NCBI GenBank assembly: GCA_016432465.1
Contig: CP066690.1
Location: 786,724-850,723 of the forward strand
DNA length: 64,000 nt
Reading direction: 5' to 3'
Origin: Candidatus Sungiibacteriota bacterium
GTDB taxonomy: Bacteria > Patescibacteriota > Minisyncoccia > Sungbacterales > HO2-52-23
The position numbers and the translations under genes were made by a program. This document shows, one piece after another, positions 4,476 through 22,673 of the stretch; position 1 is the stretch's first letter, and the number at the start of each line of letters is the position of its first letter. The notes under the pieces were generated by a model. It was given only the letters and a program-made list of their open reading frames with translations, was not told the origin of the DNA and ran no database searches.

Positions 4476-4496
4476 ATAGTGTATACAATACACTAT
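4476..4496. promoter_or_regulatory. Predicted NrtR operator upstream of nadD-nrtR-nadE
   Basis: ATAGTGT-ATACAAT-ACACTAT, a 21-bp palindrome with the GT-N7-AC core known for NrtR sites; overlaps promoter-like elements. Confidence 0.8.
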
Positions 4497-4523
4497 ATTT
4501 GCGTTATACTATTAAATACCAAC

Positions 4524-5108: not shown

Positions 5109-5788
5109 TAAAACGACAATTTCTCAAAAAATTTGAAAAACCCATGATGACAGTTGATGTTGTCTTTTTTACTATTGATCAAAATAAGTTAAAAGTTCTT
5201 CTCGTAAAAAGGAAATACGATCCCTATGGGGGTTTCTGGGCCCTGCCCGGGGGGTTTATTAGAAAAAACGAAGAGATGTATGAAGCGGCCGCAAGAGAGT
5301 TAAAAGAGGAAACAGGGGTGCGTGGAGTGTATTTGGAGCAGCTTTATACCCTTGGAGCTTTAGGCCGTGATCCTCGGGGCCGGGTGGTTACCGTGGCCTA
5401 TTTTGCGCTGGCACCGCGCCCGACTAAGAAACTTAAGCCCTCTTATGATGCGGCAGAAGCCGGATGGTTTTTGGTGGACAAATTGCCGAGGCTCGCCTTT
5501 GATCATAAGAAAATTATTGTTTATGCTTTGAGACGGGTGCGTAATAAAATTCAATATACCAATGCGGCTTGGAGTTTGCTTCCCGCAACTTTTAGTCTGG
5601 GTGAGGGTCAAAAAGTTTACGAAAGTATCTTGGGCCACCGGCTGGATAAAAGAAATTTTCGCAAAAAGTTTCTATCCCTCGGATTGCTGCAAAAAATATC
5701 TAAGGTTCGCCGCGGGCTTCGTCAGCGTCCGGCCCAACTATATAAATTTAAAACAAAAAAATACGTGGAACTTAAAAGGTTTTTCTAA
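5105..5788 (+). CDS. nrtR: Nudix-related transcriptional regulator NrtR
   Basis: Nudix 'WALPGGF...AAARELKEETG', 'LEQLYT..GRDPRGRVVTVAY', 'LAFDH', C-terminal wHTH 'YESILGHRLDKRNFRKK...RPAQLY'. Confidence 0.92.
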   Translation: MIKRQFLKKFEKPMMTVDVVFFTIDQNKLKVLLVKRKYDPYGGFWALPGGFIRKNEEMYEAAARELKEETGVRGVYLEQLYTLGALGRDPRGRVVTVAYFALAPRPTKKLKPSYDAAEAGWFLVDKLPRLAFDHKKIIVYALRRVRNKIQYTNAAWSLLPATFSLGEGQKVYESILGHRLDKRNFRKKFLSLGLLQKISKVRRGLRQRPAQLYKFKTKKYVELKRFF

Positions 5789-5802
5789 CCCTCAATATAA
5801 AT

Positions 5803-7860: not shown

Positions 7861-8236
7861 TACCCGAAGCAGAGCCTAAAGAATTTAAAAAGTGGAGCCC
7901 CACGCGCAGAGCGCGTGGCACCCTGTGTTGCGGGGTTCCTCCCACGCTCGCGCGTGGGGCGGAACCCCGCACCGAGGGTCATTTCATCCACGGGAAGTAA
8001 GACTTCCCACGGGCAAAGCCCGTGGCCCTCTGGTGCGCGGGTAGCTATGGGGTGGCCACCCGCCGGAGGATTTATATGATGACGACTACAATACTGCTAA
8101 GAAAGCTTTAAGATATTTAGTGGAGTCAATAAACAGGAATTTTAAGGCTGCTTTATCTTTGGAAGAAATAGTCAAGCTATATCAAAAGTCCTATGAAGAT
8201 GTTTTGAGTAAAAAAAGACAGCGTAGGACAAGGTGA
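7857..8236 (+). pseudogene. Small ORF coupled to nadE (ATGA overlap), interrupted by a palindromic repeat element
   Basis: MIPEAEPKEFKK | hairpin-rich insert 7893-8044 | LWGGHPPEDLYDDDY...RRTR*. Confidence 0.5.
7893..8044. repeat. Multi-hairpin REP/IS200-IS605-end-like element
   Basis: Hairpins CCACGCGC-AGA-GCGCGTGG, TGCGGGGTTCC...GGAACCCCGCA and CCACGGGC-AAA-GCCCGTGG; related to 59737-59832. Confidence 0.6.
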
Positions 8237-8317
8237 TTAAATTTTATACCTGCTCGGTTAGGTGGTCTTCTCATCTTAATCATAACAACAGGCGGCCTTA
8301 AGGCCGCCTTGCTGGGT

Positions 8318-8590
8318 TTACTGGGCTTTGGTTTTTGCTTCTTGTTTTGCCCGGGCTCGGGCCAAAGCTATAGGAAGGAAGTATTTTTGCCAAATATTAT
8401 TGGCAACATTTAGCAGTGTCGCGCCTACCATCCAACAGCCAAAATATAATCCTATTCCAAATACTACTCCCTTAGAATTCCCACTCTCGAAATATCCATC
8501 CGGCCCAATAACTCCTAAAAGGTAAAATAGGTTCCACGCCAGAGGTGTAAGCATAAAAACAGTTCCCAAAAGCGCATAAAAAATATACAT
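8318..8590 (-). CDS. Small membrane protein (2 predicted TM helices)
   Basis: 90-aa hydrophobic ORF with AAAGGAGAG RBS. Confidence 0.6.
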   Translation of the reverse strand: MYIFYALLGTVFMLTPLAWNLFYLLGVIGPDGYFESGNSKGVVFGIGLYFGCWMVGATLLNVANNIWQKYFLPIALARARAKQEAKTKAQ

Positions 8591-8681
8591 TTTCTCTCCT
8601 TTCGGGTCGGCCCTAGGTTACCCTAAGCCAGCCACCTTTTCTATTATAGAATTTATAATGATATACGTCAAGTACAAAAGC

Positions 8682-8710
8682 TTGACAATTACGCTAGAGT
8701 TTGTTATTCT
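8682..8710 (+). promoter_or_regulatory. sigma70-type promoter of pncA
   Basis: TTGACA-17 bp-TATTCT with extended TGn. Confidence 0.6.
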
Positions 8711-8742
8711 TTATAGAGGGCCTACAAAGGGAGGCTAGAACA

Positions 8743-9336
8743 ATGTCTAAAGATGCGCTGATTATTGTTGATGTTCAGAACGATTTTTGTCTGGGTGGAT
8801 CCTTGCCTGTGCCGAACGGCGATAAAGTGGTAGAGCCGTTGAACAGAATGATTGGTAAGGCGGCAAAAAAAGATGGAGGGCTTATAATCGCTTCGCGCGA
8901 TTGGCATCCAAGAGAAACAAACCATTTTGCCGAGTTTGGGGGACGCTGGCCCGTACATTGCGTACAGGGAACCAAGGGTGCTGAATTTCACCCCGGACTT
9001 TTACTGCCAGCCGACAAAGCCATTATAGTTTCCAAGGGCATGGCAAAAGATGAAGATGCCTACTCTGCTTTTCAGGGTTCCGCAGTGCTTACGACCGCAG
9101 ATGATATAACTACTGTAACTATGTATTTGCGCGATATTCTGGGCGGCTGCGGGGTTGATACTCTTTATATCGGGGGTCTAGCCACTGATTATTGTGTAAA
9201 AGCAACTGCGCTTGATGCGCGCAGATTCGGATACGAAGTATATTTGCTGATTGATGCTTGCCGGGGGGTGGCCGCAGAAACCACCTCGGACGCCTTGATA
9301 GAAATGGCCCGGGCAGGGGTGAAGTTTATTTTATAG
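8743..9336 (+). CDS. pncA: Nicotinamidase
   Basis: 'ALIIVDVQNDFC.GGSLPV', 'SRDWHP', 'WPVHCVQGTKGAEFHP', 'KG...DAYSAF', 'GLATDYCVKATALDA'. Confidence 0.95.
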   Translation: MSKDALIIVDVQNDFCLGGSLPVPNGDKVVEPLNRMIGKAAKKDGGLIIASRDWHPRETNHFAEFGGRWPVHCVQGTKGAEFHPGLLLPADKAIIVSKGMAKDEDAYSAFQGSAVLTTADDITTVTMYLRDILGGCGVDTLYIGGLATDYCVKATALDARRFGYEVYLLIDACRGVAAETTSDALIEMARAGVKFIL

Positions 9337-9485
9337 ATGACATCATAATTAAGTTTTTGGAGCCGCCTGTTGGCGGCCTTTAGATTATACATTTTAGATC
9401 GTTAGATTTGCCTTTAAAACATAAATCTTGTATAATAAATTTAGAGTTTCCAAGGGGTCTTTGACTGCCAGCGGAGGATACAACA

Positions 9486-10955
9486 ATGCTGGAGGCGCAG
9501 CTTATTTTTGACCGTTACCATGCAACAATGGATCAGTTTGCTTCGGGAGAGCACGCCCTGATTGGTGGTAAACCTTTAGCCGACCTGCCGGCCACATTTT
9601 ACGTATCGCAGCGCAAACTTTCTTTTGCTCCTTGTGTTGGTCATGAGCGTCTGCTGGAGGGTTTGATGAGACGAAACATTGATGTACCCAGAGCGCGGTT
9701 TCTTCGTGAGGATAAGGCAGGACTTTCTCGAACCGCCGAGCGTCTTGCTTCAACCTCTAACCCTTTCTTGATTCGTTGTGTAAAGCCCGGAACTATTATG
9801 TTCGCCCGGGAGCCTTTTGCAGATATCACAGGTCCTTTTGCCGAGACGCAGATGATGGAAGTAAGGTTTGAGCACGCATTTGACGAACCCATGACGGTTG
9901 CGGGCAGGGCTTTAGCCATACGGCTTGATGCGGGAGAACGCTGGATTTCTGATTTTTCCTTACGTCGGGATGGAAGTCTTGGTAGAGCGGTGGACATTGC
10001 CAAGTACTCTTATATCGGAGGTTTTGACGATACCTCCAACATGGAAGCCGCGTTTCTTTTGGACATTAATGCCGTGGGCACCATGGCTCATTATCTGGTG
10101 CAGGCGTTTCTGGTGTCTAGTCGCTATCCCCAGCGTTCGGAAAAAGGAGTACGCAAACACTTTCAACAAGCATGTTTTGAACAATGGTTAGATGCGCACC
10201 CCAAAGGCACAACCCTGCTGTTGGACACTATTACCTTAAGGCTTGGAGTAATCCACACTATTCGTGCTGCTAAAAGTTCGGAAGGCAGACGCGGGGCTTT
10301 AAGGGCAGTACGTATTGACTCTGGTAATTTGATTAAAAACGCGCTTTGGGTGCGTGCGATGCTGGATGCCAATGCCCTTGAAGACGTTAAGATTATTCTC
10401 ACATCTGACCTTGACAGGAATCTGATTGCCGAGATTGTTAAACGCTGTCCGGCAGTATACGGATTTGGCGTAGGCACAAAACTTGCCGCCGAGGTGGAAA
10501 ACGTCGCCGGTGTTATATTTAAGCTTTCCCAGATTGATGACCTGCCGACCCTCAAGTGTTCCGAAACTCCCGGGAAAGAAACTCTCCCCGGTCGCCTGCA
10601 GGTATGGCGGTGTATTGATCATGAGGGATTTTTCGTCAAAGATGTAATTGGTACTGATGGTTGGGCGGCAAGCGAACAAGATAGAAAAGAATTTTCTTCT
10701 GCCTTTCCGCTGTTGCAGCCGTGGTGGGGCAATGCTTTCAAGACTGACTTTCTGCCTTATGAACAGCCGCGTATGCCGACCATTCAGGAACAGCGCGTGT
10801 TTGTACAGCAACAGGTTAAAAGATTTCGTGATATCCATAACTATCCGGTAGAACTCTCCAGTCTGACCAAAGAACGGATTAGGTATCTTACAGAAATGAT
10901 GACCCGTGATGAGATGGGAGAGAGTGGGGTCGTCATGGTTGACTATCCATCGTAG
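9486..10955 (+). CDS. pncB: Nicotinate phosphoribosyltransferase (divergent)
   Basis: 'DRYHATM', 'EPFADITGP', 'DFSLRR', 'GGFDDTSN', 'GTMAH' (phospho-His), 'LLDT', 'VRIDSG', 'FGVGTKL', 'KETLPG'. Confidence 0.85.
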   Translation: MLEAQLIFDRYHATMDQFASGEHALIGGKPLADLPATFYVSQRKLSFAPCVGHERLLEGLMRRNIDVPRARFLREDKAGLSRTAERLASTSNPFLIRCVKPGTIMFAREPFADITGPFAETQMMEVRFEHAFDEPMTVAGRALAIRLDAGERWISDFSLRRDGSLGRAVDIAKYSYIGGFDDTSNMEAAFLLDINAVGTMAHYLVQAFLVSSRYPQRSEKGVRKHFQQACFEQWLDAHPKGTTLLLDTITLRLGVIHTIRAAKSSEGRRGALRAVRIDSGNLIKNALWVRAMLDANALEDVKIILTSDLDRNLIAEIVKRCPAVYGFGVGTKLAAEVENVAGVIFKLSQIDDLPTLKCSETPGKETLPGRLQVWRCIDHEGFFVKDVIGTDGWAASEQDRKEFSSAFPLLQPWWGNAFKTDFLPYEQPRMPTIQEQRVFVQQQVKRFRDIHNYPVELSSLTKERIRYLTEMMTRDEMGESGVVMVDYPS

Positions 10956-11047
10956 TTTTTGAAGCCGAAACGCAACCGCGTTTCGGATTTTAGTTTTTTG
11001 AAAATGATAAAGCCGAGAGTTCACGCTCTCGGTCTTTGACTTAACTG

Positions 11048-11872
11048 TTAACTGCAGGGCAAGGCGTTTAAGGTTTGTAGCATCAACTTGCCTTCGCCGG
11101 ACTCGCCCTGCTCCGGATCGCCAACAAAAATAGTATAAGAGCAGTTTTTGATGGGGTTTTCGTCATCTTTTCTGGTGAAGTCTTGAGACTCCCAACGTTC
11201 TTGTGTGGAAATAAAGGCGGTGATAGTTATATGGTGGCTCACCAAAAGAACTTCTCTTTCGGAGAACTCACGGATAAGTTTTCCCGAAAGAAGCCGCATC
11301 CGTCCCTCTACCCCCAGAACATTTTCTCCCTGCGGATAGCAATAGTCATATTTGCCGTCTCTCAAGTAAATGTACCTTTGTTCTGGGTGGAAGGTTTCCA
11401 TTACTCTCCAGTTATTGTAGAGACCGGCAAGCCCGATGTCTATTTCTCTAATAAGCGGTTCAGTCTCCTGTTTTATTCCAGCAAGTTCCGGCCATCCGCG
11501 GGTCATTCCTTCCAGTGTCTGTTTGGTGCGAAGATACGGCGAGACCAGAATAACGTCGGGAAGCCGTGCATCAGGAAGAATTTTCAGGGTTCGCCCCAGA
11601 CGTTCTGCCTGCAGCCAGCCGGTATCAGTTAGGGGTGTTAGTCGGTTACTGTAAGGCAGGAAATACTTTCTATACATTTTTACTGCCAACCCACGCAGTT
11701 CCTTTGAGGCTTTTACATACGGCCAATGTCTTTGGAACTTATCTAGATTAAATTCCTGCTCAAAGAGCTTTACAAAACGCTGATATTCCGGATCTTTCCT
11801 TTGCTGTTCTTTGACTCTGTTAAATTCTGATTCTCCGTGGCGCACTAAGATGACTTTACGCGGCCATTTCAT
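11048..11872 (-). CDS. Histidine phosphatase (phosphoglycerate mutase-like) family protein
   Basis: 'ILVRHGESEFN', 'VSPYLRTKQT', 'IREIDIG', 'PQGEN', 'VSHH', 'NCS'. Confidence 0.9.
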   Translation of the reverse strand: MKWPRKVILVRHGESEFNRVKEQQRKDPEYQRFVKLFEQEFNLDKFQRHWPYVKASKELRGLAVKMYRKYFLPYSNRLTPLTDTGWLQAERLGRTLKILPDARLPDVILVSPYLRTKQTLEGMTRGWPELAGIKQETEPLIREIDIGLAGLYNNWRVMETFHPEQRYIYLRDGKYDYCYPQGENVLGVEGRMRLLSGKLIREFSEREVLLVSHHITITAFISTQERWESQDFTRKDDENPIKNCSYTIFVGDPEQGESGEGKLMLQTLNALPCS

Positions 11873-11957
11873 TCGTTAGTCCCCCCGCAAGGTTTCTTTA
11901 ATCGTACCACGATTTCTCTGATTTTGCAAACTAAAACCGAAGCATGAGCTTCGGTTG

Positions 11958-13145
11958 CTATCTTCCCTCCAAAATGGTCTGCATAATCATTCCGACAGTT
12001 GACCAGTCAAGCAGTCGTGTCTCAATAATTTCGCCCAATGTTTTTACTTCAAGTGAGGTTTGTTCTCCTTCAGCGATATTTCCAAAGACCGTGCGGTTTC
12101 GAGCATTAGTCTCAAAATACTCAATTTCTTCGGGTTTAAGTCGGATAGAAAAAAGGTGGGTGTGATGCGCAGAAAAAGTTCCGGCAACCTGACGCGAACC
12201 ATGGGCAACCAGGCGGCATTTTTCAAATTCTTTTCCGGTTTCTTCCTTAATCTCCTCCAGGGCAATTTCTTCCGGTGTCAGCCACCATTGGGGTGAGGAG
12301 CCGCTGGGCAGCTCGTGGATAAATCCATCCGGAGTTCTCCCCGAAGGCCGGAACTCTTTTACCAAAACAATTTTTGTATTCAGCGGGTTGAAAGCTTCCT
12401 GCCATAGCACTGTGGCCGAGGTATCGGTTCTGGACAGGGCAAAATCAAACTCGCTTGTTTTGAATCTATTTTCCGAGGCAATAAAGATCCGTGCCTGTAG
12501 TATCCATCTGTAAACAAATGACCCCTTAGCATTCTTGCGGGAGCACCAAAGTACCTCGGCCCCTTCCAGTATATTTCCTGCTGTCTTTAGACCTTCATAC
12601 CACAATTGGAATGATTTCGCGTTCCAGATGTGAAGCGGTATGTCGCATTCACCGCCATTTCTCTCGGCGCCGCCTCCAATGTAGGAGACCGCAAAATCAA
12701 GGGTGTCTTTCAGCGTTTGAAAGCGCGGGACGTCTTGCCTGTCTGCCGTCAGTTCAAGATATTTATTTCTAGGAAGATCAGGTGGAGCGCCATAAACTAT
12801 TTTGCCCGAGCGTACCCAAAGACCAAATTCCACGTTGGTGGTAAAGGCAGGCATGGTAGTAAGGTTTCTTGGCACCCAAAACACAATAAGATCCGCCCTG
12901 TTAAGGCCTATTCGCTCCCAAGCAATCTGGTGTTTGTATTCTTGATTGTTTATATCTTCTTCTCTTGGTCCGTCGCGATTTTCCGGTATAAATACATGCC
13001 CGTCATAGCCAAGTTCCTCCAGAATTTTGATTGCCCCGGGAATGCGCCAAGAGGGAGTAGTGCGTTTCCTCGGCGTCGGCCCTGCAAGAAATATAGATTT
13101 TTTAACGTGCGTAGGAAAAGGTTCTCTGGTATAAATCAGTTCCAT
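11958..13145 (-). CDS. Nucleoside 2-deoxyribosyltransferase-like domain fused to a Nudix hydrolase
   Basis: N-terminal 'SIFLAGPTPR..SWR', 'QIAWE...ADLIVFWVPR...TTNVEFG'; C-terminal 'LVKEFR...ELPSGS...ALEEIKEETG'. Confidence 0.8.
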   Translation of the reverse strand: MELIYTREPFPTHVKKSIFLAGPTPRKRTTPSWRIPGAIKILEELGYDGHVFIPENRDGPREEDINNQEYKHQIAWERIGLNRADLIVFWVPRNLTTMPAFTTNVEFGLWVRSGKIVYGAPPDLPRNKYLELTADRQDVPRFQTLKDTLDFAVSYIGGGAERNGGECDIPLHIWNAKSFQLWYEGLKTAGNILEGAEVLWCSRKNAKGSFVYRWILQARIFIASENRFKTSEFDFALSRTDTSATVLWQEAFNPLNTKIVLVKEFRPSGRTPDGFIHELPSGSSPQWWLTPEEIALEEIKEETGKEFEKCRLVAHGSRQVAGTFSAHHTHLFSIRLKPEEIEYFETNARNRTVFGNIAEGEQTSLEVKTLGEIIETRLLDWSTVGMIMQTILEGR

Positions 13146-13260
13146 GACGTCCTCCCCCTGCTGGCAATGTTTAAAGTTTAAACTTTTTTGTTAAAAAAAA
13201 CAAGCGAAAACCCACACCGAATTTTGGTGTGGGAAGTCTGACTTTCTGTGGGTGATTGGG

Positions 13261-14142
13261 CTATAGTATTACTGCTCCTTCATATTGCCAGTAGGGCCGG
13301 ATACGTCCGTTAGGAGAAAAAATTATATTTCTCAATTCTTCCGAGTCTGGCTGGATAGAAAGACAGTTATTAAGACAGAAATTCTGGCCGTTGACGTCAA
13401 AAACTACTGCACCATGGGTTAGGGTATACAGTCTCCTTCCTTGTGTAAAAAGAAATTGCTGGATATCCCCAAACTGTTCAGTGGTTAGCTGGTGCTCACT
13501 GGTCCACTCCCATACTTTTTTGTCTCTGGCCAGTCTTTCCTCTGGTTTTTCGACCGGCGTTCCGGTAAGTTGTTCCACCCTGTTTGTTTTGGCAAATTCA
13601 ATAAGACGTGTCAGCTCTTTGCTGTTATCAATAAACCCCCCGGTCAGAACGCAAGTTAGTCGCACCGAGAAAAGCATGTCGTGCAATGTTTGGATAAGAC
13701 GCGGCAGGTCAAAATAACTTTTGGGAGAGTGAAAAAAGAATTCTCCATTTTTCCCCGGATCGTAGTGGGCAATAGATATGGCAATAGTAGTCATACCAAG
13801 TTCGTACCACATTTTGAGGTGGGAAGCGTATACTTCCGGTTTTCGAGCAAGCAGACTGCCGTTGGTTTGCAGTTCAATAAGAGGAAATTCAAAGGGCTCA
13901 AGCTCTTGTAGAAATCGCGTAATTTGTTTTGGAAAGATCGTAGGTTCACCCTTGCCGGTCAGCATGACTGTGGTACATCCGCATTGTTTGGCTAGTCGGC
14001 AGGCAATTTTGAAGTTCCGCCAATTTACCTCCGGCTCCTTAGTCTCTATCCCCTCAGGTAGTGTCATTTTGGAAACACAGGGCGAGCAACAGGCATTACA
14101 GGCCTCACTTCCGGCGATAATGCTGAAGGTCTGGATGCGCAT
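13261..14142 (-). CDS. Radical SAM protein of unknown function
   Basis: CxxxCxxC 'CNACCSPC', 'LTGKGEPT', 'ELQTNG'; GGAGG RBS. Confidence 0.85.
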   Translation of the reverse strand: MRIQTFSIIAGSEACNACCSPCVSKMTLPEGIETKEPEVNWRNFKIACRLAKQCGCTTVMLTGKGEPTIFPKQITRFLQELEPFEFPLIELQTNGSLLARKPEVYASHLKMWYELGMTTIAISIAHYDPGKNGEFFFHSPKSYFDLPRLIQTLHDMLFSVRLTCVLTGGFIDNSKELTRLIEFAKTNRVEQLTGTPVEKPEERLARDKKVWEWTSEHQLTTEQFGDIQQFLFTQGRRLYTLTHGAVVFDVNGQNFCLNNCLSIQPDSEELRNIIFSPNGRIRPYWQYEGAVIL

Positions 14143-14231
14143 CTTCTACCCTCCGGTCCTGCGGTCTCTTTAAGGGTAACATAGAAATATTACTTTGTCC
14201 AGCCAAAAAGGAAGCCGCCCGCGGGGTTTCA

Positions 14232-14332
14232 TCCCCCCACCCAGGGAACCGCGGCTGGAAGGCCGCGGAGGAATGGCATAGTCTCTCGCGAAACGAGAAA
14301 CACAAGATAACCCACCCGGGAGGGTGGGGGGA
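14232..14332. mobile_element. MITE-like element with related TIRs (TCCCCCCACCC...GGGTGGGGGGA) but different interior
   Basis: Inverted termini; flanks TTCA/CTCA. Confidence 0.55.
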
Positions 14333-14333
14333 C

Positions 14334-15206
14334 TCATCTAAACGCGAATTTTTCCTGCAGGCTTTTGAAAAAATAGTTTTTTTCAAGTTCCAAAAAGCGC
14401 ACCAATCTCTCGGATTTTTTAATAATTATGCGGTCTCCCGGGCGCAGCGCGAGAGCCCGTTCCGTGTCAGTCGAGAGCATGACGTCCACCGGCTCTTTTG
14501 TATCCTGCAGTAGAAATCGGCCACTTTTTCTAAAACCCCCAATCTTCACGGTGATGGTTCTGTCCCTTTTAATAACGAGGCTCGGCGTAGGCAGACTATG
14601 GTCCATTAATTCTGTGATGATAAAACATTTGATGTCGGGCATAACAATGGGGCCGTGGGCGGATAGATTGTAGGCAGTAGAGCCGGTTGCCGTAGAAACC
14701 AAAACCCCGCTGCCGTGGATTTTTTGTACACAATGCTCGTCCACATACACTTCAATATCAACAACCCCCGAAAGATTCTGGACCGCAATCTCATTCAAGG
14801 CGTATCCGGACAAAATTCTTTTGCCTCTACGTTCAACCACTGCTCGCATCATCATATGCGGTACCACGCGGTATTTACGGCGCAAAACACTAAAGAGTCC
14901 CGCTACGAAGTTTTTGGGGTTTCTGACGGAGGCAAGAAATCCTACATGACCAAGGTTCAGGCCCAAAATACGCGGATTCCAACGCTGAAATTTTTGAGCA
15001 GCTTCCAGTATGGTTCCATCCCCGCCCAGTACAATCAAAAGTTCCGGGGCTGATTTTTTTTGCCGCGGAACCGCATTGGATGCCAGAATTTGAATTTTGG
15101 TAAAACGTTTTTTTAGGAGTCGGGCAAGTTTGTTTTCCCAAAATTTGGCAGCTTTAACTTCCGTCCGAAAATAAAAAGCTACTTTTTTAAATGCTAAGCC
15201 GGACAT
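14334..15206 (-). CDS. nadK: NAD kinase
   Basis: 'VLGGDGTIL', 'GLNLGHVGFL', 'ALNE', 'VSTATGSTAYNLSAHGP'. Confidence 0.95.
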   Translation of the reverse strand: MSGLAFKKVAFYFRTEVKAAKFWENKLARLLKKRFTKIQILASNAVPRQKKSAPELLIVLGGDGTILEAAQKFQRWNPRILGLNLGHVGFLASVRNPKNFVAGLFSVLRRKYRVVPHMMMRAVVERRGKRILSGYALNEIAVQNLSGVVDIEVYVDEHCVQKIHGSGVLVSTATGSTAYNLSAHGPIVMPDIKCFIITELMDHSLPTPSLVIKRDRTITVKIGGFRKSGRFLLQDTKEPVDVMLSTDTERALALRPGDRIIIKKSERLVRFLELEKNYFFKSLQEKFAFR

Positions 15207-15261
15207 GCGGTAATTTTATCACGTTTAGCCCTTTTTTGCCAAGTAGACTCCGGTTAACACC

Positions 15262-15318
15262 TTGACTTATTTTCACCGGCGTACTATACTAATACTGGTA
15301 GTGTAGCGTGTACACTAT
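15262..15318 (+). promoter_or_regulatory. sigma70 promoter (TTGACT-17-TATACT, 15262-15290) followed by predicted NrtR operator (15298-15318)
   Basis: GTAGTGT-AGCGTGT-ACACTAT directly after the -10 box. Confidence 0.8.
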
Positions 15319-15341
15319 TTGGTTCTTTTGGGGAGGATGTT

Positions 15342-15803
15342 GTGAGGACGGTTGAGATTGTGGTACGCAACAAAGACGGGAAATTATTTTTCTACGGTGA
15401 TGGGATTTATTTTAATTTTCTTAGTGCCTTTCCTTTTTGGGGAGGAGAGCTGTGTTTACTACGAGATGGCAAGATCATTGATCGCGCTCGCATTGATGAA
15501 CACGGCACACATGCGCCTACTGTATGCTTTTTGGGGCTAAAGAGTGTGGGCACGTATGCAACAACAGATCTTTTTGTCGTTCAGTTCCAAGAGGGTGATC
15601 TGCTAAAAATTGAGTTTCTGGACACGGTCGGCGAATTACGGCAATGGGTTATTAATGACTTTATTGATACGGAGGTTTGGAAGCGGGTAAAAGAGAGTGG
15701 TCATACCACCCCATCCTATGCGGTTCTGGAGTTATATGCGGAAGAATGGGAGCGTTTATGTAAAGAGATTAAGGATAAAAACATAGATACATTTGAAATT
15801 TAA
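15342..15803 (+). CDS. Hypothetical protein, predicted NrtR-regulated
   Basis: 153-aa ORF with GGGAGG RBS, own promoter and operator. Confidence 0.7.
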   Translation: MRTVEIVVRNKDGKLFFYGDGIYFNFLSAFPFWGGELCLLRDGKIIDRARIDEHGTHAPTVCFLGLKSVGTYATTDLFVVQFQEGDLLKIEFLDTVGELRQWVINDFIDTEVWKRVKESGHTTPSYAVLELYAEEWERLCKEIKDKNIDTFEI

Positions 15804-15911
15804 GAAACAAGGCACCCGTCTAAGGGTGCTTTAATGCAAAATTTTTTGATTGACTGTTGTATTTAAAGGGGGTACTATTGTTTAGGTTTGGATACAAGGG
15901 ACTCTTAAATA

Positions 15912-16718
15912 ATGCGGCAGCCGCTTCATAAAAAGGCGCGTCTGGAAAAGCCGTCTGTATATCCCGAAAGATTTTCTGTCCCCGACGACAAAGTAGACTG
16001 GTGTAGCTATTTTGGAGAATACCGCCCGCCTTATTTTGTGGCACCAGAAATTTTGGAGCGGTTTTATCAAAATCCGTCAGAAGTAGATCCAGAAGATTGC
16101 TGTAAGATTAAAAGGCCGTTTTACAGTTTTGAAAATAAGGTGGAGCTTGATAGTTCTAATCGGCCGAGAAATCCCAGAGGCAGAACCGGTCTTGCGGGTA
16201 GGGGCATACTTTGGAGGTGGGGAGCTAACCTAGCAGTTGATACGGTTTTAAGCAGGCTTAATGCAGAAACGGACGAGTTGGAGTTGCTTCTTATAAATAG
16301 AAAAGACACCGGAGAGCTCGCTCTTCCTGGGGGTATGGTGAATAAAGGTGAAAAGATTCGGGAGGCACAAGAGCGGGAATTTGAAGAAGAAACAGGTCTC
16401 AAGATTTCTATGGAAGACTCCGAAACGGTTTATTGCGGTTATGTGGATGATCAAAGAAACACAGATAACGCTTGGATGGAAACCGTGGCCTCGCATAAGC
16501 ACATGGGTAGTAATCAGGCAAGTACTTTAAGTTTTCGGGCTGGCGATGACGCCGAGAATGTTCTTTGGCATTCTTTGAAACCCGAGCTCATCACTAATCT
16601 TTATGCCAGTCATGACGAAATTGTTAGGCTGGCTATGTATAGGTTTTACGATCGCTGTGGCGGTTGGTTGACTGCAAAAACAAAGGAACAAATTGAGGCA
16701 GTGATAGTCCGTCAGTAG
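15912..16718 (+). CDS. NUDT9-like ADP-ribose pyrophosphatase
   Basis: 'RNPRGRTGLAGRGILWRWGAN', 'ALPGGMV...REFEEETG', 'GYVDDQRNTDNAWMET', 'AGDDA', 'LYASH' are NUDT9-family signatures. Confidence 0.9.
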   Translation: MRQPLHKKARLEKPSVYPERFSVPDDKVDWCSYFGEYRPPYFVAPEILERFYQNPSEVDPEDCCKIKRPFYSFENKVELDSSNRPRNPRGRTGLAGRGILWRWGANLAVDTVLSRLNAETDELELLLINRKDTGELALPGGMVNKGEKIREAQEREFEEETGLKISMEDSETVYCGYVDDQRNTDNAWMETVASHKHMGSNQASTLSFRAGDDAENVLWHSLKPELITNLYASHDEIVRLAMYRFYDRCGGWLTAKTKEQIEAVIVRQ

Positions 16719-16733
16719 TACGGACTTTTTTCA

Positions 16734-16793
16734 TTGACATATTGGCTATTACAGGCTATAATTTAAATAGCAGTAGTGTGCTATGCACACTAT
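16734..16793 (+). promoter_or_regulatory. Consensus sigma70 promoter (TTGACA-17-TATAAT, 16734-16762) and predicted NrtR operator (16773-16793)
   Basis: GTAGTGT-GCTATGC-ACACTAT just downstream of the predicted transcription start. Confidence 0.85.
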
Positions 16794-16833
16794 TTGATCC
16801 TTGAGTAATTGGTGCCTGTAGAGGAGAAAGAAA

Positions 16834-18168
16834 ATGTATGAGAAAGTCTACGACGTCGCCATTATTGGCGGAGGGGTTACTGGCACAGCCCAAGCGTATA
16901 TCTTTTCTTATTTTGTGGAGGGGGTTTCCCGGATTTTGCTCGTTGAGAAAAATAATAATGTGGCGCTGGTAAATTCGCACACAGTCAGCAACGCCCAAAC
17001 ACTGCATGGCGGCGATACAGAAACAAATTTTGGTTTAGAGAAGGCGTTGAAGATGAGAGACGCGGAGCGAATGCTCTCGGCGTTTCTTGAGAAATTTAGT
17101 CACGGTCAGGGCGCATTCCGCCGGCTCTATAAAATGGCTTTTGGAGTAGGGGAGAAAGAGGTTCGGATTCTCTCCGAGCGCTTTGCCATGATTAGGAGCT
17201 ATTATCCTACTTTGCAGTTTCTGGGACGCGAGGAGCTGGTGCGCATTGAACCGAAGCTCTTGGAAGGACGTGATCCCAGCATACCCGTAGCAGCGCTTTA
17301 TCGTCCCAATGGTTATGCGGTGGATTATCGAAAACTGGCAGAGTGTTTTGTGGCTGAAGCCAAAAAAACAGGCAAAGTGGAAATTTTACTTGGCACAAAA
17401 ACGAATGAGATCATAAGGCGGGGCAATCTCTTTGAGATACGCACATCCAAAGGCAATTATCTTGCTAAAGCCGTGATGGTGGCAGCAGGACCCTATAGTC
17501 TTCTTTTTGCTCACGCCTTGGGTTATGCCGGGGATTATACAATTCTTCCGGTTGCCGGAAATTTCTACCACACTAAGGCTGTCTGTTTTCCTGGAAAGGT
17601 ATATGGTGTTCAAGATCCTGTATTACAGTTTACCGCAGCGCATATTGATTCTTCCGTGGATAATCCTGGAAAGATGCGTCTTGGTCCTACGGCTGACGTT
17701 GTTCCTCTTCTTGAAAAACACCACTGGATGACTTTTATAGACTTCTTGCGTACGGGGATCATTGGGTTACGCGGTGCCCGCGCTATTGCCAAGATTTTTT
17801 GCAACTGGAAGGTTGTGAAATTTGCAGCGCGTAACATCGTCTACAAGCTTCCTGTTGTTGGTAAATGGTACTTTTTGAAAAAGGCAGCGCAGAAACTCGT
17901 ACCCACCCTTCGTTATCGTGATATCCAGTTTGCCAAAGGAGAGGGTGGTATCAGGCCGCAGTTGGTGAACGTAGAAGAGGGGCGACTGGAAATGGGTACA
18001 GGGAAGATTTTGGGCGATAGTATTATTTTTGATATCACCCCTTCGCCCGGGGCTTCGGACTGTTTGAGGAATGCTGTGGTAAACGCTAAGCACGTCGTCC
18101 AACTTTCAGGCGGTGCATACGTTTTTGACGAAGAAAGTTTTCAGAAGGAGTTCGGCCTCCACACCTAG
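16834..18168 (+). CDS. FAD-dependent oxidoreductase, Helicobacter/Campylobacter-type malate:quinone oxidoreductase-like; candidate NadB substitute
   Basis: 'DVAIIGGGVTG', 'NAQTLHGGDTETNF', 'KMAFGVG', 'LPVAGNFY', 'GKVYGVQDP', 'RLGPTA', 'GGIRPQ', 'DITPSPGASDCLRNA' match the epsilonproteobacterial Mqo motif pattern as I recall it. Confidence 0.8.
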   Translation: MYEKVYDVAIIGGGVTGTAQAYIFSYFVEGVSRILLVEKNNNVALVNSHTVSNAQTLHGGDTETNFGLEKALKMRDAERMLSAFLEKFSHGQGAFRRLYKMAFGVGEKEVRILSERFAMIRSYYPTLQFLGREELVRIEPKLLEGRDPSIPVAALYRPNGYAVDYRKLAECFVAEAKKTGKVEILLGTKTNEIIRRGNLFEIRTSKGNYLAKAVMVAAGPYSLLFAHALGYAGDYTILPVAGNFYHTKAVCFPGKVYGVQDPVLQFTAAHIDSSVDNPGKMRLGPTADVVPLLEKHHWMTFIDFLRTGIIGLRGARAIAKIFCNWKVVKFAARNIVYKLPVVGKWYFLKKAAQKLVPTLRYRDIQFAKGEGGIRPQLVNVEEGRLEMGTGKILGDSIIFDITPSPGASDCLRNAVVNAKHVVQLSGGAYVFDEESFQKEFGLHT

Positions 18169-18317
18169 CGGTGGAGGTTTTTCTTTTATCTTTCGTCCTC
18201 CAGAAAACGCGGCAGCTTGGGAAGTCAGACTTCCCTTGCTGCCGAGTAGTTCATCACCTTTATCATTGAGCGGTTGATGCCCTCTTGACTTTTTTTGAAG
18301 AGCGCGTTACACCTTAC

Positions 18318-18338
18318 TTAGTGTACAGGTTACACTAA
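18318..18338. promoter_or_regulatory. Predicted NrtR operator upstream of nadA-nadC
   Basis: TTAGTGT-ACAGGTT-ACACTAA; TTGACT at 18285. Confidence 0.8.
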
Positions 18339-18358
18339 TTGGACCCTTGAAAAAGGAG

Positions 18359-19474
18359 ATGGCCGTGCAAGAAATAGTATCCGGCGATATCCTACCGGCG
18401 CGGGAGGCCATTGAAGCCATTGATGAGACTGACCTTGGGCCGCCGATTGAAATACCAGCAATATCCCCGGACGCTTTCCCGGAAAATATCACGGATGAGG
18501 AGCGGAAGTTTTTAAGATCCGAAATTCAACGCCTCAAAGAGGAGCGTAATGCCCTAATTTTGGCCCACAATTATATGCCCAAAGACGTGCAGGATATTGC
18601 CGATGTGGTGGGGGACTCGCTTTATCTTGCCCAGCGGGGTACGGCATCCAATGCGGATATTCTTTGTGAGGCCGCAGTGCTTTTTATGAATCAGATTTTG
18701 GCAATCATGAAAAAGCCGCACCAGAGGGTTTTGGCGCCGAGTATGTCGGCCTTATGTTCTTTGGCAGCGCATGCGGACGCGGAAAAAATCCGGGCGTGGA
18801 GGCAAGAGCATCCGGACGGCATTGTCATAAGTTATGTAAATACCTACGTGGACGTAAAAGCCGAAAGTGATTATTGCTGTGCGTCCGCGAACTCCCCCAG
18901 GGTTATTCTTCATGTTCTCGCGCATCATCCCGGAAAACCTATTCTTTTTCTCCCCGATGTTTATCTTGGTTTTTATGCGGCAAAACTTCTGCAGCAGCAA
19001 GGCGAGTCTTTGGATCGGCTGTGGCTTATGATGGGCGTATGTCACGTGCACGATCGCATACGGCCTCATCATGTAGAAGCGGCACGCAAACTCTATCCCG
19101 GAGCGGCAGCCGTGGTGCATCCGGAATGCGGTTGCACCAGCGCCTGTATGCGTCAGATCAGTGATGGTTTGGTGCCTTCCAGCATGATGCAGTTTCGTTC
19201 CACTCAAGGCATGATTGATTTTGTAAAACAATCACCCCAAAGGGTTGTGATTGTGGCGACGGAAGTCGGGAACCTAGTTCCTATGTCCAAGGCCGCACCA
19301 GATAAAGTTCTGATTCCTGCCAACCGCGAGGCAGTCTGCGCTTTCATGAAGCAAAATACACTGCGCGGCGTTTATGGGTCGTTGCGCGATCTCAAATATG
19401 AAATTTCGATTGATGATCCGGAACTTGCTAAGCGCGCCCGCATCCCCATTGAGCGGATGCTCGCGATTGTGTAA
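18359..19474 (+). CDS. nadA: Quinolinate synthase (start may be GTG 18365)
   Basis: 'LILAHNY', 'GDSLYLA', three cluster cysteines 'ALCSLA', 'GVCHVH', 'VCAFMK'; 'SYVNT', 'FLPD', 'VHPEC'. Confidence 0.95.
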   Translation: MAVQEIVSGDILPAREAIEAIDETDLGPPIEIPAISPDAFPENITDEERKFLRSEIQRLKEERNALILAHNYMPKDVQDIADVVGDSLYLAQRGTASNADILCEAAVLFMNQILAIMKKPHQRVLAPSMSALCSLAAHADAEKIRAWRQEHPDGIVISYVNTYVDVKAESDYCCASANSPRVILHVLAHHPGKPILFLPDVYLGFYAAKLLQQQGESLDRLWLMMGVCHVHDRIRPHHVEAARKLYPGAAAVVHPECGCTSACMRQISDGLVPSSMMQFRSTQGMIDFVKQSPQRVVIVATEVGNLVPMSKAAPDKVLIPANREAVCAFMKQNTLRGVYGSLRDLKYEISIDDPELAKRARIPIERMLAIV

Positions 19475-19485
19475 GGAGACAAGAG

Positions 19486-20322
19486 ATGAATGAACTCTGG
19501 CTTGAACCGGAACTTAAGCGTTTTTTGCTGGAGGATATAGGGTATCTAGAAATTGATTTTGGGGTTCCAGCGCGTTACATTACTGCCGAAATTGTTGCTG
19601 GAGGCGAAGGAGTATTTTGCGGTGGTCGTTTTATAGCAAAACTTTTTAATCTTTTGGTTCCGCCGGAGATTAGACCGCTGCAGATGATTCATTGCGAACC
19701 GGAAGGCGCAGAATTTAAAAAAGGAACAATACTGGCCAGTTTCAGAGTCAACGCCGAAGCCCTGCGGCACGGCACTCGTACGGTACTCAACCTACTGACG
19801 CACCTTACGGCGATTGCCACGCGTACTCGCGAAGTAGTAAAAGAGCTGCAGAATTTTTCAGTTACCTTGCTTGATACTAGAAAAACAACTCCGGGATTGA
19901 GGATTTTTGAGAAATATGCAGTTCGCGTGGGCGGCGCATCCAACCATCGCATGGGCAGGTTTGACGGCATACTTATTAAAAAAGAAGACATTAAAATTGA
20001 TGGCGGGATCAGGAATGCCGTGGAGAAGGCATGCCGCAAGAAAGCGTACCTTGTCGCTGTGTCGGTGGAAATAGAAACACTGGAGGAATTGGGGGAGGCG
20101 CTGGGAGACAAGCGCGTGACGCATCTTTTGGTTGATAACCCCAGTATTGAACTTCTCCAAAGAACAGTAGAGCGTTGCGCCAGCACCCATATAATAGAAG
20201 CATCAGGGGTGGGAAAGTTGGACCTTCGCGAGGTAGCGGCCACCGGTGTGCATTATATCTCTCTAAGTTCGTTGATTCTCGGCGCAAAAACAATTAAGAT
20301 GAAGATGAGAATAGTCTCCTAA
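19486..20322 (+). CDS. nadC: Quinolinate phosphoribosyltransferase
   Basis: 'LLEDIG', 'IATRT', 'LDTRKTTPGLRIFEKYAVRVGGASNHR', 'VEIE', 'VDN', 'EASG'. Confidence 0.92.
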   Translation: MNELWLEPELKRFLLEDIGYLEIDFGVPARYITAEIVAGGEGVFCGGRFIAKLFNLLVPPEIRPLQMIHCEPEGAEFKKGTILASFRVNAEALRHGTRTVLNLLTHLTAIATRTREVVKELQNFSVTLLDTRKTTPGLRIFEKYAVRVGGASNHRMGRFDGILIKKEDIKIDGGIRNAVEKACRKKAYLVAVSVEIETLEELGEALGDKRVTHLLVDNPSIELLQRTVERCASTHIIEASGVGKLDLREVAATGVHYISLSSLILGAKTIKMKMRIVS

Positions 20323-20346
20323 AAAGGCGGCCTCGGCCGCCTTTTA
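20321..20346 (+). terminator. Intrinsic terminator after nadC
   Basis: AAAAGGCGGCC-TC-GGCCGCCTTTT. Confidence 0.65.
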
Positions 20347-20381
20347 AAATTGATAACTTTGGTATAAAATACGTTTTAGAC

Positions 20382-22673
20382 ATGGCAACTAACGATAAAA
20401 AAAGGCAAATTCCCATTACCCTAAGTCGCACCTTGGGCGTCTGGGAAGTAACTCTTCTTGGGGTGGGGGCGCTTTTAGGTGGCGGGATTTTCACCCTTTT
20501 AGGGCATGCGGCTGGACTGGCCGGAGGCGGTCTTATTTTTGCCATGATGCTGGGTGCGGCGATTTCTTTTTTAAACCTTAATTCTTATGTTTCGCTTGCC
20601 ACTACCTTTCCCGAAGCTGGCGGAGGGTATCTTTGGGTTAAGGAAGGATTAGGGGACTTGCAAGGATTTATGTCCGGCTGGATTTCTTGGATGGCGCACT
20701 CGGTTGCCTGTTCTCTTTATGCCGTAAGCTTTGGTATTTTTGCCGCAGAATTTGCTTTTTCGCTTCTTGGTGTACCCATGTTTGGAATTTCGCTTTTTAC
20801 TTGGAGGCTGCTTTTTACAACTGCAGTGGTGGTTTTTTTCGGATTGGTTAACTATCGCGGTGTAGCCCTTACGGGTAAAGCGGGCGGCTACATTTCACTT
20901 ACGCTTATTGCTATACTACTTTTTTATATCTTTTTTGGAGTGAAGCGGATGACTGGTCTCCCCGATCTTTTAAATATTAATTTCTTGCCCTTGCTTCCTT
21001 TTGGACTTGTGGGGGTACTGCAGGCAGCATCGCTTTTTTATATTGCTTTTGAGGGGTCCGAAATTCAGGCGCAAACCGGCGAGGAAGCCAAAGACCCCGC
21101 ACGGACGCTAAAAATTTCGCTTTTTTCTTCTTGGGCTATTATTTCAGTCCTCTATCTTTTAATTGCGTTTGTCATTGTCGGCGCGACCAGTAATTTGGGC
21201 GAACCTTCCTGGAAAGTTCTTATGGGACATTCGGACCGCGCCATTATTGAGTCAGCCAAACAGTTTATGCCTGTGGGCTATATTCTTATGGTGTTGGGGG
21301 GGTTGCTAGCCAACATTGCTGCGCTCAATGCCACTATTTATTCTTCTTCACGGGTCCTTTTTGCTATGGCGCGGGACAAATTTGTCTGGCCCAAACTCGC
21401 CGATATGCATGAACTTAATCTCACGCCCTACCGCGCTGTACTGCTTTCGGTGGCCGCAATTATTTTTGTGGCCGTTTTCCTGCCCCTGAAAGATATCGCG
21501 GGGGCTGCTGACATTCTATTTATACTGCTTTTCTCACAGCTTAATCTTGCCTACATAGAACTTCGGCGCAAAAAGCCGGAAGCGCGCTGGTATTACGTGG
21601 TTCCTTTTGGGCCGGTGCTGCCGCTTACGGCAGTAGTGCTTTACTTCGTCCTCGGAGTTTCGCTTTTTCACGTAAGTCCTATTGCTATTTATTTTACTGC
21701 CATCTGGTTTCTTTTGGGCCTCGTGAATTATTTTGCTTTTACCAAAACACAGGAGCGCGAGGATCTGGAACGGGAAGTTATGTATGAGCATACTACGCGA
21801 TTCCGTGAGAAGTTAGGATATCGCATAATTCTGCCGGTAGCTAATGAAGAACACTGGAATATGTTTTCGCAGATCGCCCTTGCTGTGGCGCGCGAGGAAC
21901 AGGGAGAACTTTTGGTCTTGAGAATTCACGAGGTTCCTCCAACTCTTCCCTTGGCTGCGGGTTTTAACACCGACCACGAAAGAAGGGTGCTGGACAAAAT
22001 AGAAAAATCGTCTATTGAGAAAAAAACGAATATAGATACGAGATTGCTTGCGGCGCGCTCCGTCCCGGAGACTATTTTAGAAACAGTAGCGGTGGAGAAT
22101 GGAGACCTGCTGATTATGGGTTGGGACGGCTATGTTGATACCAAGGGTTTTATCTTTGGCCGCAAGGTAGATACGGTATTGCATCGCGCCAAAAGCGACT
22201 TGCTAGTGGTTAAATTGCAGGACCCGGAACACATAAAAAGAATCTTGGTTCCGGTGCCCTTAGATGAAAATCCCAATCTTCGTTTTGCCGGAAAGGTTGC
22301 AACCGCTTTGGCCAACTGGTTTGACGGGGAAGTTACTGTGGTTATGATCATACCGGATTACACCTCAAACATCAGTTATGCTCGTTATCACGTGTTGTTG
22401 GAGGATAGGATTCGAGAACTAAAGTTTAAAACTACCAAAGAAATAAAATTAAAACTAATTCGTTCCAACCATATTGCCTCTGCTATTATCAAGGAGGCTA
22501 ATCATCACGATGTGGTGCTTTTGCCAGCGGCCCGCGGCCGCATTACCAAGGTTATTGGGATGGGATCAATTCCGGAACAAATCGCTAAGCATTGCCGCAA
22601 AACTATAATCATGGCCAAGGGGCATCGTGGTATTATTCAGCCGTTTTTTGACTACGTCAAATCGCGCTTTTGA
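20382..22673 (+). CDS. APC-family amino acid permease with C-terminal universal stress protein domains
   Basis: 'LGVGALLGGGIF', 'FPEAGGGY', 'GEEAKDPART', 'SSSRVLFAMARD'; USP-like 'RIILPVAN', 'DLLIMGW', 'RILVPV'. Confidence 0.9.
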   Translation: MATNDKKRQIPITLSRTLGVWEVTLLGVGALLGGGIFTLLGHAAGLAGGGLIFAMMLGAAISFLNLNSYVSLATTFPEAGGGYLWVKEGLGDLQGFMSGWISWMAHSVACSLYAVSFGIFAAEFAFSLLGVPMFGISLFTWRLLFTTAVVVFFGLVNYRGVALTGKAGGYISLTLIAILLFYIFFGVKRMTGLPDLLNINFLPLLPFGLVGVLQAASLFYIAFEGSEIQAQTGEEAKDPARTLKISLFSSWAIISVLYLLIAFVIVGATSNLGEPSWKVLMGHSDRAIIESAKQFMPVGYILMVLGGLLANIAALNATIYSSSRVLFAMARDKFVWPKLADMHELNLTPYRAVLLSVAAIIFVAVFLPLKDIAGAADILFILLFSQLNLAYIELRRKKPEARWYYVVPFGPVLPLTAVVLYFVLGVSLFHVSPIAIYFTAIWFLLGLVNYFAFTKTQEREDLEREVMYEHTTRFREKLGYRIILPVANEEHWNMFSQIALAVAREEQGELLVLRIHEVPPTLPLAAGFNTDHERRVLDKIEKSSIEKKTNIDTRLLAARSVPETILETVAVENGDLLIMGWDGYVDTKGFIFGRKVDTVLHRAKSDLLVVKLQDPEHIKRILVPVPLDENPNLRFAGKVATALANWFDGEVTVVMIIPDYTSNISYARYHVLLEDRIRELKFKTTKEIKLKLIRSNHIASAIIKEANHHDVVLLPAARGRITKVIGMGSIPEQIAKHCRKTIIMAKGHRGIIQPFFDYVKSRF

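Follow-up and report, generated by a model that had tools for sequence, protein, structure and literature searches.

A short Mqo-like flavoprotein in the nadB position as a candidate first enzyme of de novo NAD synthesis in a Candidatus Sungiibacteriota genome

The OX-nadA-nadC locus and its operators

We analysed a stretch of 64,000 nucleotides from Candidatus Sungiibacteriota bacterium (GCA_016432465.1, contig CP066690.1, positions 786,724 to 850,723), hereafter the window, in which a gene for a flavin adenine dinucleotide (FAD)-type flavoprotein, here named OX, precedes two genes of nicotinamide adenine dinucleotide (NAD) synthesis, nadA and nadC. The genome is a single contig of 923,469 bp (100% complete, 0.98% contamination), referred to as G000 among the sampled genomes. 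The order FAD oxidoreductase, nadA, nadC, described in an initial annotation of the window, was confirmed, with all three genes on the + strand. The same annotation had found neither nadB nor nadX in the window, and this holds for the whole complete genome: there is no match to TIGR00551 (nadB) and none to PF01958 (nadX/aspartate dehydrogenase), and the only match to PF00890 (FAD_binding_2) covers 38 positions of a dinucleotide fold in a 330-aa frame. OX is the sole true DAO-family protein of the genome and a candidate for the iminoaspartate-forming enzyme, i.e., a new enzyme variant for a known pathway step, with a predicted chemistry. The features of the locus, together with all four operators (given without strand), are as follows, in window coordinates:

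16706-16726: terminator-like hairpin before OX
16734-16762, + strand: sigma-70 type promoter of OX, TTGACA-17-TATAAT, with 12/12 consensus matches
16774-16792: NrtR-type operator TAGTGTGCTATGCACACTA before OX, exact site, 12 bp 3' of the -10 box
16834-18168, + strand: OX, 444-aa FAD flavoprotein of a short Mqo-like family, candidate iminoaspartate-forming enzyme
18154-18179, + strand: terminator-like hairpin after OX, with a T run to 18188
18285-18313, + strand: promoter-like site of nadA, TTGACT-17-TACACC, read from the sequence, outside the scan scoring
18319-18337: NrtR-type operator before nadA, exact site
18347-19474, + strand: nadA, quinolinate synthase (PF02445, 1.2e-85; three invariant Cys in the NadA alignment)
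19486-20322, + strand: nadC, quinolinate phosphoribosyltransferase (QRPTase_C and QRPTase_N; TIGR00078 191.2 bits, below the cut-off of 198.4)
4477-4495: NrtR-type operator before nadD-nrtR-nadE, exact site
15299-15317: NrtR-type operator between nadK (-) and orf153 (+), exact site

The start of nadA is more likely the ATG at 18361, which is preceded by AAGGAG. The consensus promoter that had been ascribed to OX proved perfect, and the gene forms its own transcription unit in this genome, since terminator-like hairpins flank it on both sides. We found that the motif TAGTGT-N7-ACACTA has exactly four exact copies in the whole genome, each at an NAD promoter, and that every other similar site carries at least two mismatches; for 12 fixed bases in 0.92 Mb, an arithmetic estimate gives around 0.1 exact sites. 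The operator previously noticed at OX, nadA and nadD is therefore real and has a fourth exact site between nadK and orf153. Because of these four genome-wide sites and the presence of nrtR, the OX-nadA-nadC observation is stronger than first stated. The NrtR sites described in the literature are palindromes of 21 bp whose core reads GT-N7-AC (PMC2330246). Such a GT-N7-AC palindrome lies in the OX promoter, nrtR is encoded in the genome and further copies stand at other NAD genes, so that OX is a predicted member of the NrtR regulon, which is supported by the operator sequence and the presence of nrtR. The NrtR motif was also detected before OX in loci L099, L101, L102, L106, L111, and L148.

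These features bear directly on the possibility that nadA and nadC serve only the salvage of imported intermediates and that OX is a neighbor without a role in NAD synthesis. Small epibiont-type genomes import much, and the salvage genes pncA and pncB are present. We nonetheless regard this as highly improbable, given that OX is preceded by a perfect promoter of its own and by an exact operator site of the kind confined to NAD promoters, and that the arrangement recurs in five families and on metagenome contigs. Moreover, iminoaspartate is unstable, hence its uptake is unlikely.

The metabolic setting of OX is defined by several absences from the complete genome, in which we detected no Ldh/Mdh or malic enzyme, no UbiA-type prenyltransferase, no haem-copper oxidase (COX1), and no cytochrome bd. 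Fumarase and aspartase are also absent, as both Lyase_1 proteins exceed the cut-offs for PurB and ArgH, and so is a class I/II aspartate aminotransferase, the sole match being a sugar aminotransferase. No standard malate- or oxaloacetate-making enzyme was found in a search from which carboxylases and malate uptake were excluded. Thus, the initial doubt about a respiratory Mqo role is justified for this genome, in which neither the quinone pool nor the malate supply expected of an Mqo was found; an Mqo here would be left without evident malate source, quinone pool, and terminal oxidase (malate uptake and carboxylases unchecked). Aspartate, in turn, must be available in any case, as it is required for protein, PurA, and ArgG.

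The remaining genes of NAD synthesis and salvage (nadD, nadE, pncA, pncB, and nadK, along with nadA and nadC) are grouped at 4.4-20.3 kb of the window. Those with individual entries are:

4524-5108, + strand: nadD (NF000840 174.4 bits, above the cut-off of 150)
5105-5788, + strand: nrtR, Nudix-related repressor (NrtR_WHD 1.4e-20 and NUDIX; NF050029 175.7 bits, below the cut-off of 400)
5803-7860, + strand: nadE, glutamine-dependent NAD synthetase (NAD_synthase and CN_hydrolase)
14334-15206, - strand: nadK, NAD kinase

Together they belong to an unusually complete NAD "supercluster" (4477-22673), which starts with operator-nadD-nrtR-nadE, pncA, and pncB, continues with a histidine-phosphatase gene, a nucleoside 2-deoxyribosyltransferase-like gene, a weak radical-SAM-like open reading frame and nadK, and ends with operator-orf153 and a NUDT9-like Nudix gene, operator-OX, operator-nadA-nadC, and a gene for an amino-acid permease fused to Usp domains. 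The permease gene 3' of nadC was considered as evidence of aspartate uptake and dropped, as it is not kept beside the operon in other genomes. The orf153 gene (15342-15803) carries a promoter-like site and an exact NrtR operator and is followed by the gene of a 268-aa Nudix protein; its product has no Pfam or NCBIfam match, and on its operator and promoter-like site it is a predicted NAD-regulon member of an unassigned family. Genes encoding ADP-ribosylglycohydrolases recur near NrtR operators and NAD genes in L097, L099, L122, and L148, which fits with ADP-ribose as the putative NrtR signal.

Distribution of OX and of its wider family

In our sample of 401 genomes of the window's class, nadA is present in 17, G000 included. 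OX is encoded by six of them (G000, G766, G548, G742, G652, and G546), which represent five GTDB families, nadB by four, all of family f193, and nadX by none. A seventh presumed OX carrier, G555, was rejected, as its protein is an unrelated DAO protein of 29% identity. OX and nadB never occur together in these 17 genomes. The anti-correlation with nadB that had been anticipated thus applies in both directions: none of the six OX genomes has nadB, and the four nadB genomes are devoid of OX. A recognisable nadC was detected only in G000, G546, G652, and G742, all four of which are OX operons.

OX lies immediately 5' of nadA in five of the six OX genomes; in the sixth, OX is found at a contig end and nadA begins another contig. 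The spacing between the two genes ranges from an 11-nt overlap (L101) through 1 nt (L009) and 27 nt (L100) to 123 nt (L099), and the gap of about 180 nt in G000 contains the terminator, promoter, and operator. We found the gene order NrtR-OX-nadA in L009 as compared to NrtR-nadB-nadA in L104 and L105. The NrtR-X-nadA slot is thus shared by OX and nadB, which is a case of gene displacement in situ. Compared with the NadA of the window, those of L100 and L106 show 34-35% identity, and the others 68-73%. Since these two divergent NadA are still encoded beside OX, the OX-nadA adjacency outlasts the change of nadA type, and the two loci point to an in-place replacement of nadA beside clade OX. The divergent nadA genes of L100 (G652) and L106 encode proteins of 400-411 aa.

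Some further traits of these loci were noted. L104 (G543) and L105 (G706), both from Saccharibacteria of family f193, carry NrtR-nadB-nadA with no recognisable nadC, and their cluster includes a gene for a PncB-like phosphoribosyltransferase which might accept quinolinate. In L009, positions 18490-20988 encode an 832-aa fusion of NAD synthetase (CN_hydrolase and NAD_synthase) with a nadD-like cytidylyltransferase domain, located 3' of an NrtR operator, an uncharacterised 340-aa open reading frame and purA.

The OX family as a whole is broad: a word-indexed search gave 621 matches, and 210 representatives with E <= 1e-30 were retrieved from a library of 50% clusters. Its members come from cyanobacteria, many lineages of the candidate phyla radiation (CPR) and DPANN, Haloparvum, Campylobacterota, and others. 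However, nadA is located near a family member in only one of 81 genome loci (L009), and among 21 small CPR/DPANN genomes with a family member, nadA was found in two and nadB in none. In the phylum sample, an OX-family protein was detected in two of 401 genomes. Cyanobacterial genomes with a member of the general branch of the family (see below) all encode nadB above the cut-off (12/12).

A metagenome scan with the clade alignment, from which 80 loci were kept, extended the picture. The gene order nadK, operator, OX, operator, nadA, nadC was found in L106, and a fragment of OX followed by operator, nadA, and nadC in L135. L109 contains nadK, operator, and OX up to the contig end, L108 contains OX followed by pncA, and L111 has an OX sequence identical to that of L099. 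In L122, OX is followed by an operator, genes for an ADP-ribosylglycohydrolase and a nucleoside deoxyribosyltransferase-like protein, pncA, pncB, and nadA. In L118 and L127, on contigs with 65-68% guanine plus cytosine, the OX stop codon overlaps the start of nadC. An origin of these two high-GC contigs from Micrococcus, which is also without NadB, was rejected, because L118 has relatives that bear the name Candidatus Binatia; for the same reason, the coupling of OX to the NAD pathway recurs outside CPR.

Phylogenetic analysis separates the NAD-linked proteins from most of the family. The IQ-TREE tree of 62 rows contains a branch with a Shimodaira-Hasegawa-like approximate likelihood ratio test (SH-aLRT) support of 100 that sets apart all nadA-adjacent proteins; the clade thus delimited also takes in 18 context-less metagenome proteins and L008. 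In a tree of 60 rows, the clade received an SH-aLRT of 97 and is adjoined by the Binatia pair (support 89), with the L122/L015 group on the other side. FastTree recovered the same clade from 178 rows (support 94). We examined flanks of 6 kb for metagenome loci and of up to 10 kb for genome loci. Among the eight clade members with at least 1.5 kb of downstream sequence (G000 included), nadA directly follows OX in six, as compared to the other, general branch of cyanobacterial, DPANN, and further CPR proteins, where neither nadA nor nadC was found within the flanks of any of the 130 loci (108 of them with at least 1.5 kb downstream). Hence, the co-localisation with nadA and nadC that the initial annotation had put forward is true of one distinct clade (5/6 genomes) and a few outliers, and does not extend to the family at large.

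Predicted active site and role of OX

OX matches Pfam DAO (PF01266) with an E-value of 1.3e-22 and 81.2 bits (gathering score 27.9), its N-terminal GxGxxG FAD fold reading DVAIIGGGVTGTA, and over residues 6-408 it also matches Pfam Mqo (PF06039) with 62.1 bits (cut-off 27). By contrast, none of the curated NCBIfam cut-offs is reached, the best scores being those of LhgO NF008726 (84.8 of 299 bits) and Mqo NF003611 (72.9 of 499 bits). As the cut-offs of all 15 listed NCBIfam Mqo models are far above its scores, OX stands outside the curated Mqo families. It likewise stands outside L2HGDH/LhgO, as it scores below the NF008726 cut-off and keeps four of the five residues in contact with 2-oxoglutarate, and, having no PF00890 or TIGR00551 match, it does not share the NadB architecture. 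The confident AlphaFold (AF2) model of OX (predicted local distance difference test, pLDDT, 87.5; predicted template modelling score, pTM, 0.88) finds its best fold match in mycobacterial Mqo (9dm1_A), with a template modelling (TM) score of 0.80 by query and 0.74 by target and an E-value of 2.8e-26, followed by Drosophila L2HGDH (dmL2HGDH; 8w7f, TM 0.77-0.84), and then by glycine oxidase, GlpO, and other amine oxidases. The best sequence match in PDB is dmL2HGDH 8w75 (E 5.7e-12 with the protein, 6.2e-24 with the family profile).

We mapped the active site by profile alignment to dmL2HGDH, with the roles of its residues taken from PMC10726252. His58 of OX aligns with His92, which acts as the base at C2. 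In dmL2HGDH, the C1 carboxylate is bound by Tyr289 and His302, whose counterparts in OX are Tyr257 and His270, and the distal carboxylate by Arg393, the counterpart of Arg374 (PMC10726252). Since these four residues are invariant across the family, the OX site is predicted to bind an L-configured 2-substituted dicarboxylate. Such a predicted site fits L-malate and L-aspartate alike, and the substrate is not decidable from sequence alone. Ser88 of dmL2HGDH, which contacts the flavin N5 and the C1 carboxylate (PMC10726252), corresponds to position 54, where 27 of 28 clade members have Ala and 129 of the 133 rows from the other branch have Ser. Altogether, seven clade-typical changes were recognised (S54A, Y66F, V74M, Y117F, G232A, Y298W, and Y330F). 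They do not strictly track NAD linkage, and an active-site switch was therefore dropped as an argument for specificity.

Based on regulon membership, positional replacement, phyletic exclusion, and the dedicated clade, by which a role of OX in the pathway is supported, we propose that OX replaces NadB as the L-aspartate-oxidising first enzyme, a non-orthologous replacement to which we assign a probability of roughly 0.55. OX would oxidise L-aspartate on FAD to iminoaspartate and hand this product on to NadA, which would condense it with dihydroxyacetone phosphate (DHAP) to quinolinate. The substrate would thus be L-aspartate and not L-malate. As the enzyme is soluble and the genome lacks quinone synthesis, O2 is the first guess for the acceptor. 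NrtR would repress OX together with the pathway, and the repression would be relieved by ADP-ribose, by analogy to characterised NrtR proteins.

The fold and the active site also accommodate another view, namely that OX keeps the ancestral chemistry of its family and forms oxaloacetate from L-malate (or from a 2-hydroxy dicarboxylate like it), after which iminoaspartate arises from oxaloacetate and ammonium, non-enzymatically or in the NadA site. OX passes the Pfam Mqo gathering score, its best fold match is the mycobacterial Mqo at TM 0.80, and it shares 34% identity with a protein of Helicobacter canis annotated as malate dehydrogenase (quinone). Neither its catalytic His nor any of its carboxylate-binding residues differs from those of the non-NAD branch. 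The operator, the adjacency, and the exclusion of nadB fit this view equally well, and in vitro assays of NadA use oxaloacetate plus ammonium to provide iminoaspartate. Yet, the genome shows no malate source and neither quinone synthesis nor quinol oxidase, and chemical imine formation requires high ammonium. Furthermore, an oxaloacetate-forming family member would not make NadB dispensable in cyanobacteria, as nadB is kept in all 12 carriers. We therefore consider the oxaloacetate route unlikely; aspartate is preferred as the substrate because there is no evident malate source, quinone pool, or terminal oxidase, because aspartate is always needed, and because nadB is kept in cyanobacteria. 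That OX provides the first step by one or the other of these two routes, taken jointly, seems likely, and the roles of OX other than the first step are rather unlikely.

Several observations weigh against aspartate oxidation by OX. The characterised close relatives Mqo, L2HGDH, and GlpO all oxidise 2-hydroxy acids and not amino acids, and His58, the hydroxyl-base histidine, is invariant across the family. The nadA-nadC-linked L099 retains Tyr66, L118 and L127 retain both Ser54 and Tyr66, and the canonical Mqo 9dm1 likewise has Ala at position 54. Clade member L148 has NAD genes and an operator before OX, yet no nadA within 6 kb; around clade member L008, some 16 kb of sequence contain neither NAD genes nor an operator, and no nadA was found in its genome, the completeness of which is unknown. 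Seven of the 17 nadA genomes have neither OX nor nadB nor nadX; they also have no recognisable nadC, and one of their nadA genes is fragmentary. A missing first step is therefore not unique to OX carriers. The related genomes are not independent, as the OX carriers belong to five families of one class and the nadB genomes to one family. Lastly, a search for fusions of OX with NadA or NadC (>777 aa, E <= 1e-20) gave none, which is weak evidence.

Some of these points would be accounted for if OX were an NAD-independent dehydrogenase placed in the NrtR regulon for another reason, e.g., to form DHAP for NadA from glycerol-3-phosphate or to stand in for an NAD-dependent dehydrogenase under NAD scarcity, with the iminoaspartate step served otherwise or by uptake. 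This would agree with L148 and L008, which carry the gene without nadA nearby, and with the seven nadA genomes lacking a recognisable first-step enzyme. In addition, the N-terminal half of OX resembles L-alpha-glycerophosphate oxidase 4x9m (E 2.3e-10 with the protein, 1.8e-16 with the profile), and NrtR regulons include genes outside NAD synthesis (PMC2330246). However, the first step would stay unfilled in a complete genome, and there would be no explanation of why OX and nadB exclude each other in one and the same position, or of why OX is translationally coupled to nadA and nadC in lineages apart from each other. The conserved residues, moreover, match the dicarboxylate site of L2HGDH. We thus find this explanation quite improbable.

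The seven nadA genomes without a first-step enzyme (G445, G523, G555, G624, G651, G718, and G799) correspond to loci L092-L098. In G624, there is only a nadA fragment, located between nrtR and pncA, and in G718, operator-nadA lies downstream of an ADP-ribosylglycohydrolase gene.

The closest relatives of OX (P0002, P0004, P0005, P0007, and P0011) are 589-619 aa long and possess an extra N-terminal domain of about 150 aa, which looks membrane-spanning by eye, contains a conserved CxxC...GW motif and bears a weak likeness to DUF1360 (E 0.006). No counterpart of this domain was found in the window's genome (tblastn best E 0.24). The domain may anchor the protein in the membrane or act as an electron-acceptor module, and it hints at a membrane-side electron acceptor in those organisms. 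Another family protein, P0333 (1130 aa), has its Mqo-like domain at 647-1110, preceded by 646 residues without a Pfam match.

OX in comparison with known systems

For the first step of de novo NAD synthesis, two enzymes are known, NadB and NadX, and OX is a candidate for a third, unrelated flavoprotein. We found no paper that assigns the OX family to NAD synthesis or links it to nadA, in a search that excluded subscription journals and supplements. If the proposal is true, some Saccharibacteria make NAD from aspartate, and OX is a specific, clonable gene that may fill a long-standing gap in genomes having the rest of the pathway; part of a family annotated as malate dehydrogenase (quinone) could then be reassigned. 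A comparable gap, put forward in the initial annotation for H. pylori, is on record: in curated reconstructions, NadB/NadB2 is missing in 34 predicted niacin prototrophs, of which 17 are H. pylori strains, and an as yet unidentified iminoaspartate-forming enzyme is postulated (Rodionov et al., 2019; PMC6593275).

The short Mqo of Helicobacter and other Campylobacterota (~450 aa) is of the same family and length as OX. The initial annotation had named this family from the motifs, and indeed, H. canis P0397 is 34% identical to OX over the full length (E 3e-85), the motif NxQTxHxGxxETN[YF] being common to both. The H. canis protein lies in the 90% cluster of one family representative, and a Hydrogenimonas member is another representative. 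The Helicobacter short Mqo is presumably H. pylori HP0086, and Mqo activity of the H. pylori enzyme was reportedly described by Kather and colleagues in 2000. Nevertheless, P0397 has the general-branch residues Ser54 and Tyr66 and is positioned in the other half of the tree than OX, so that the Helicobacter family member falls in the branch not linked to NAD genes; in contrast to the setting of the Helicobacter-type Mqo, neither a quinone system nor a malate source was found in the window's genome. A more general reading, in which short Mqo-like flavoproteins join NadB and NadX as a third kind of enzyme providing iminoaspartate for NAD synthesis, might include the enzyme postulated for H. pylori and would act by aspartate oxidation as a second activity or by supplying oxaloacetate to NadA, is doubtful and is offered only tentatively.

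Canonical Mqo (PF06039; 9dm1) is the best structural match of OX, which passes its Pfam model. Yet, the two share only 19% identity, OX is around 50-100 residues shorter and the NCBIfam Mqo cut-offs are not reached. Similarly, the equivalents of His92, Tyr289, His302, and Arg393 of L2HGDH (8w75; LhgO NF008726) are kept in OX, but the equivalent of Ser88 is Ala in the NAD-linked clade and the NF008726 score is 84.8 vs. 299 bits.

NadB (TIGR00551) occupies the same NrtR-X-nadA slot as OX, the two being mutually exclusive, and forms the same product as is predicted for OX. It is, however, a flavoprotein of an unrelated family (FAD_binding_2, of the succinate dehydrogenase/fumarate reductase type), to whose models, PF00890 and TIGR00551, OX shows no match. 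NadB uses O2 or fumarate as acceptor. NadX/NadB2, an L-aspartate dehydrogenase (PF01958), is already established as a non-orthologous substitute for NadB at this step; unlike OX, it is no flavoprotein but depends on NAD(P), and it is absent from the window's genome as well as from all 17 related nadA genomes. ThiO, the glycine oxidase of thiamine synthesis, shares the superfamily fold of OX, but is distant from it in sequence (profile E ~1e-8) and acts on another substrate in another pathway. As a flavin oxidase, ThiO supplies its partner in cofactor synthesis with an unstable imine, a task which in many genomes is fulfilled by the unrelated ThiH.

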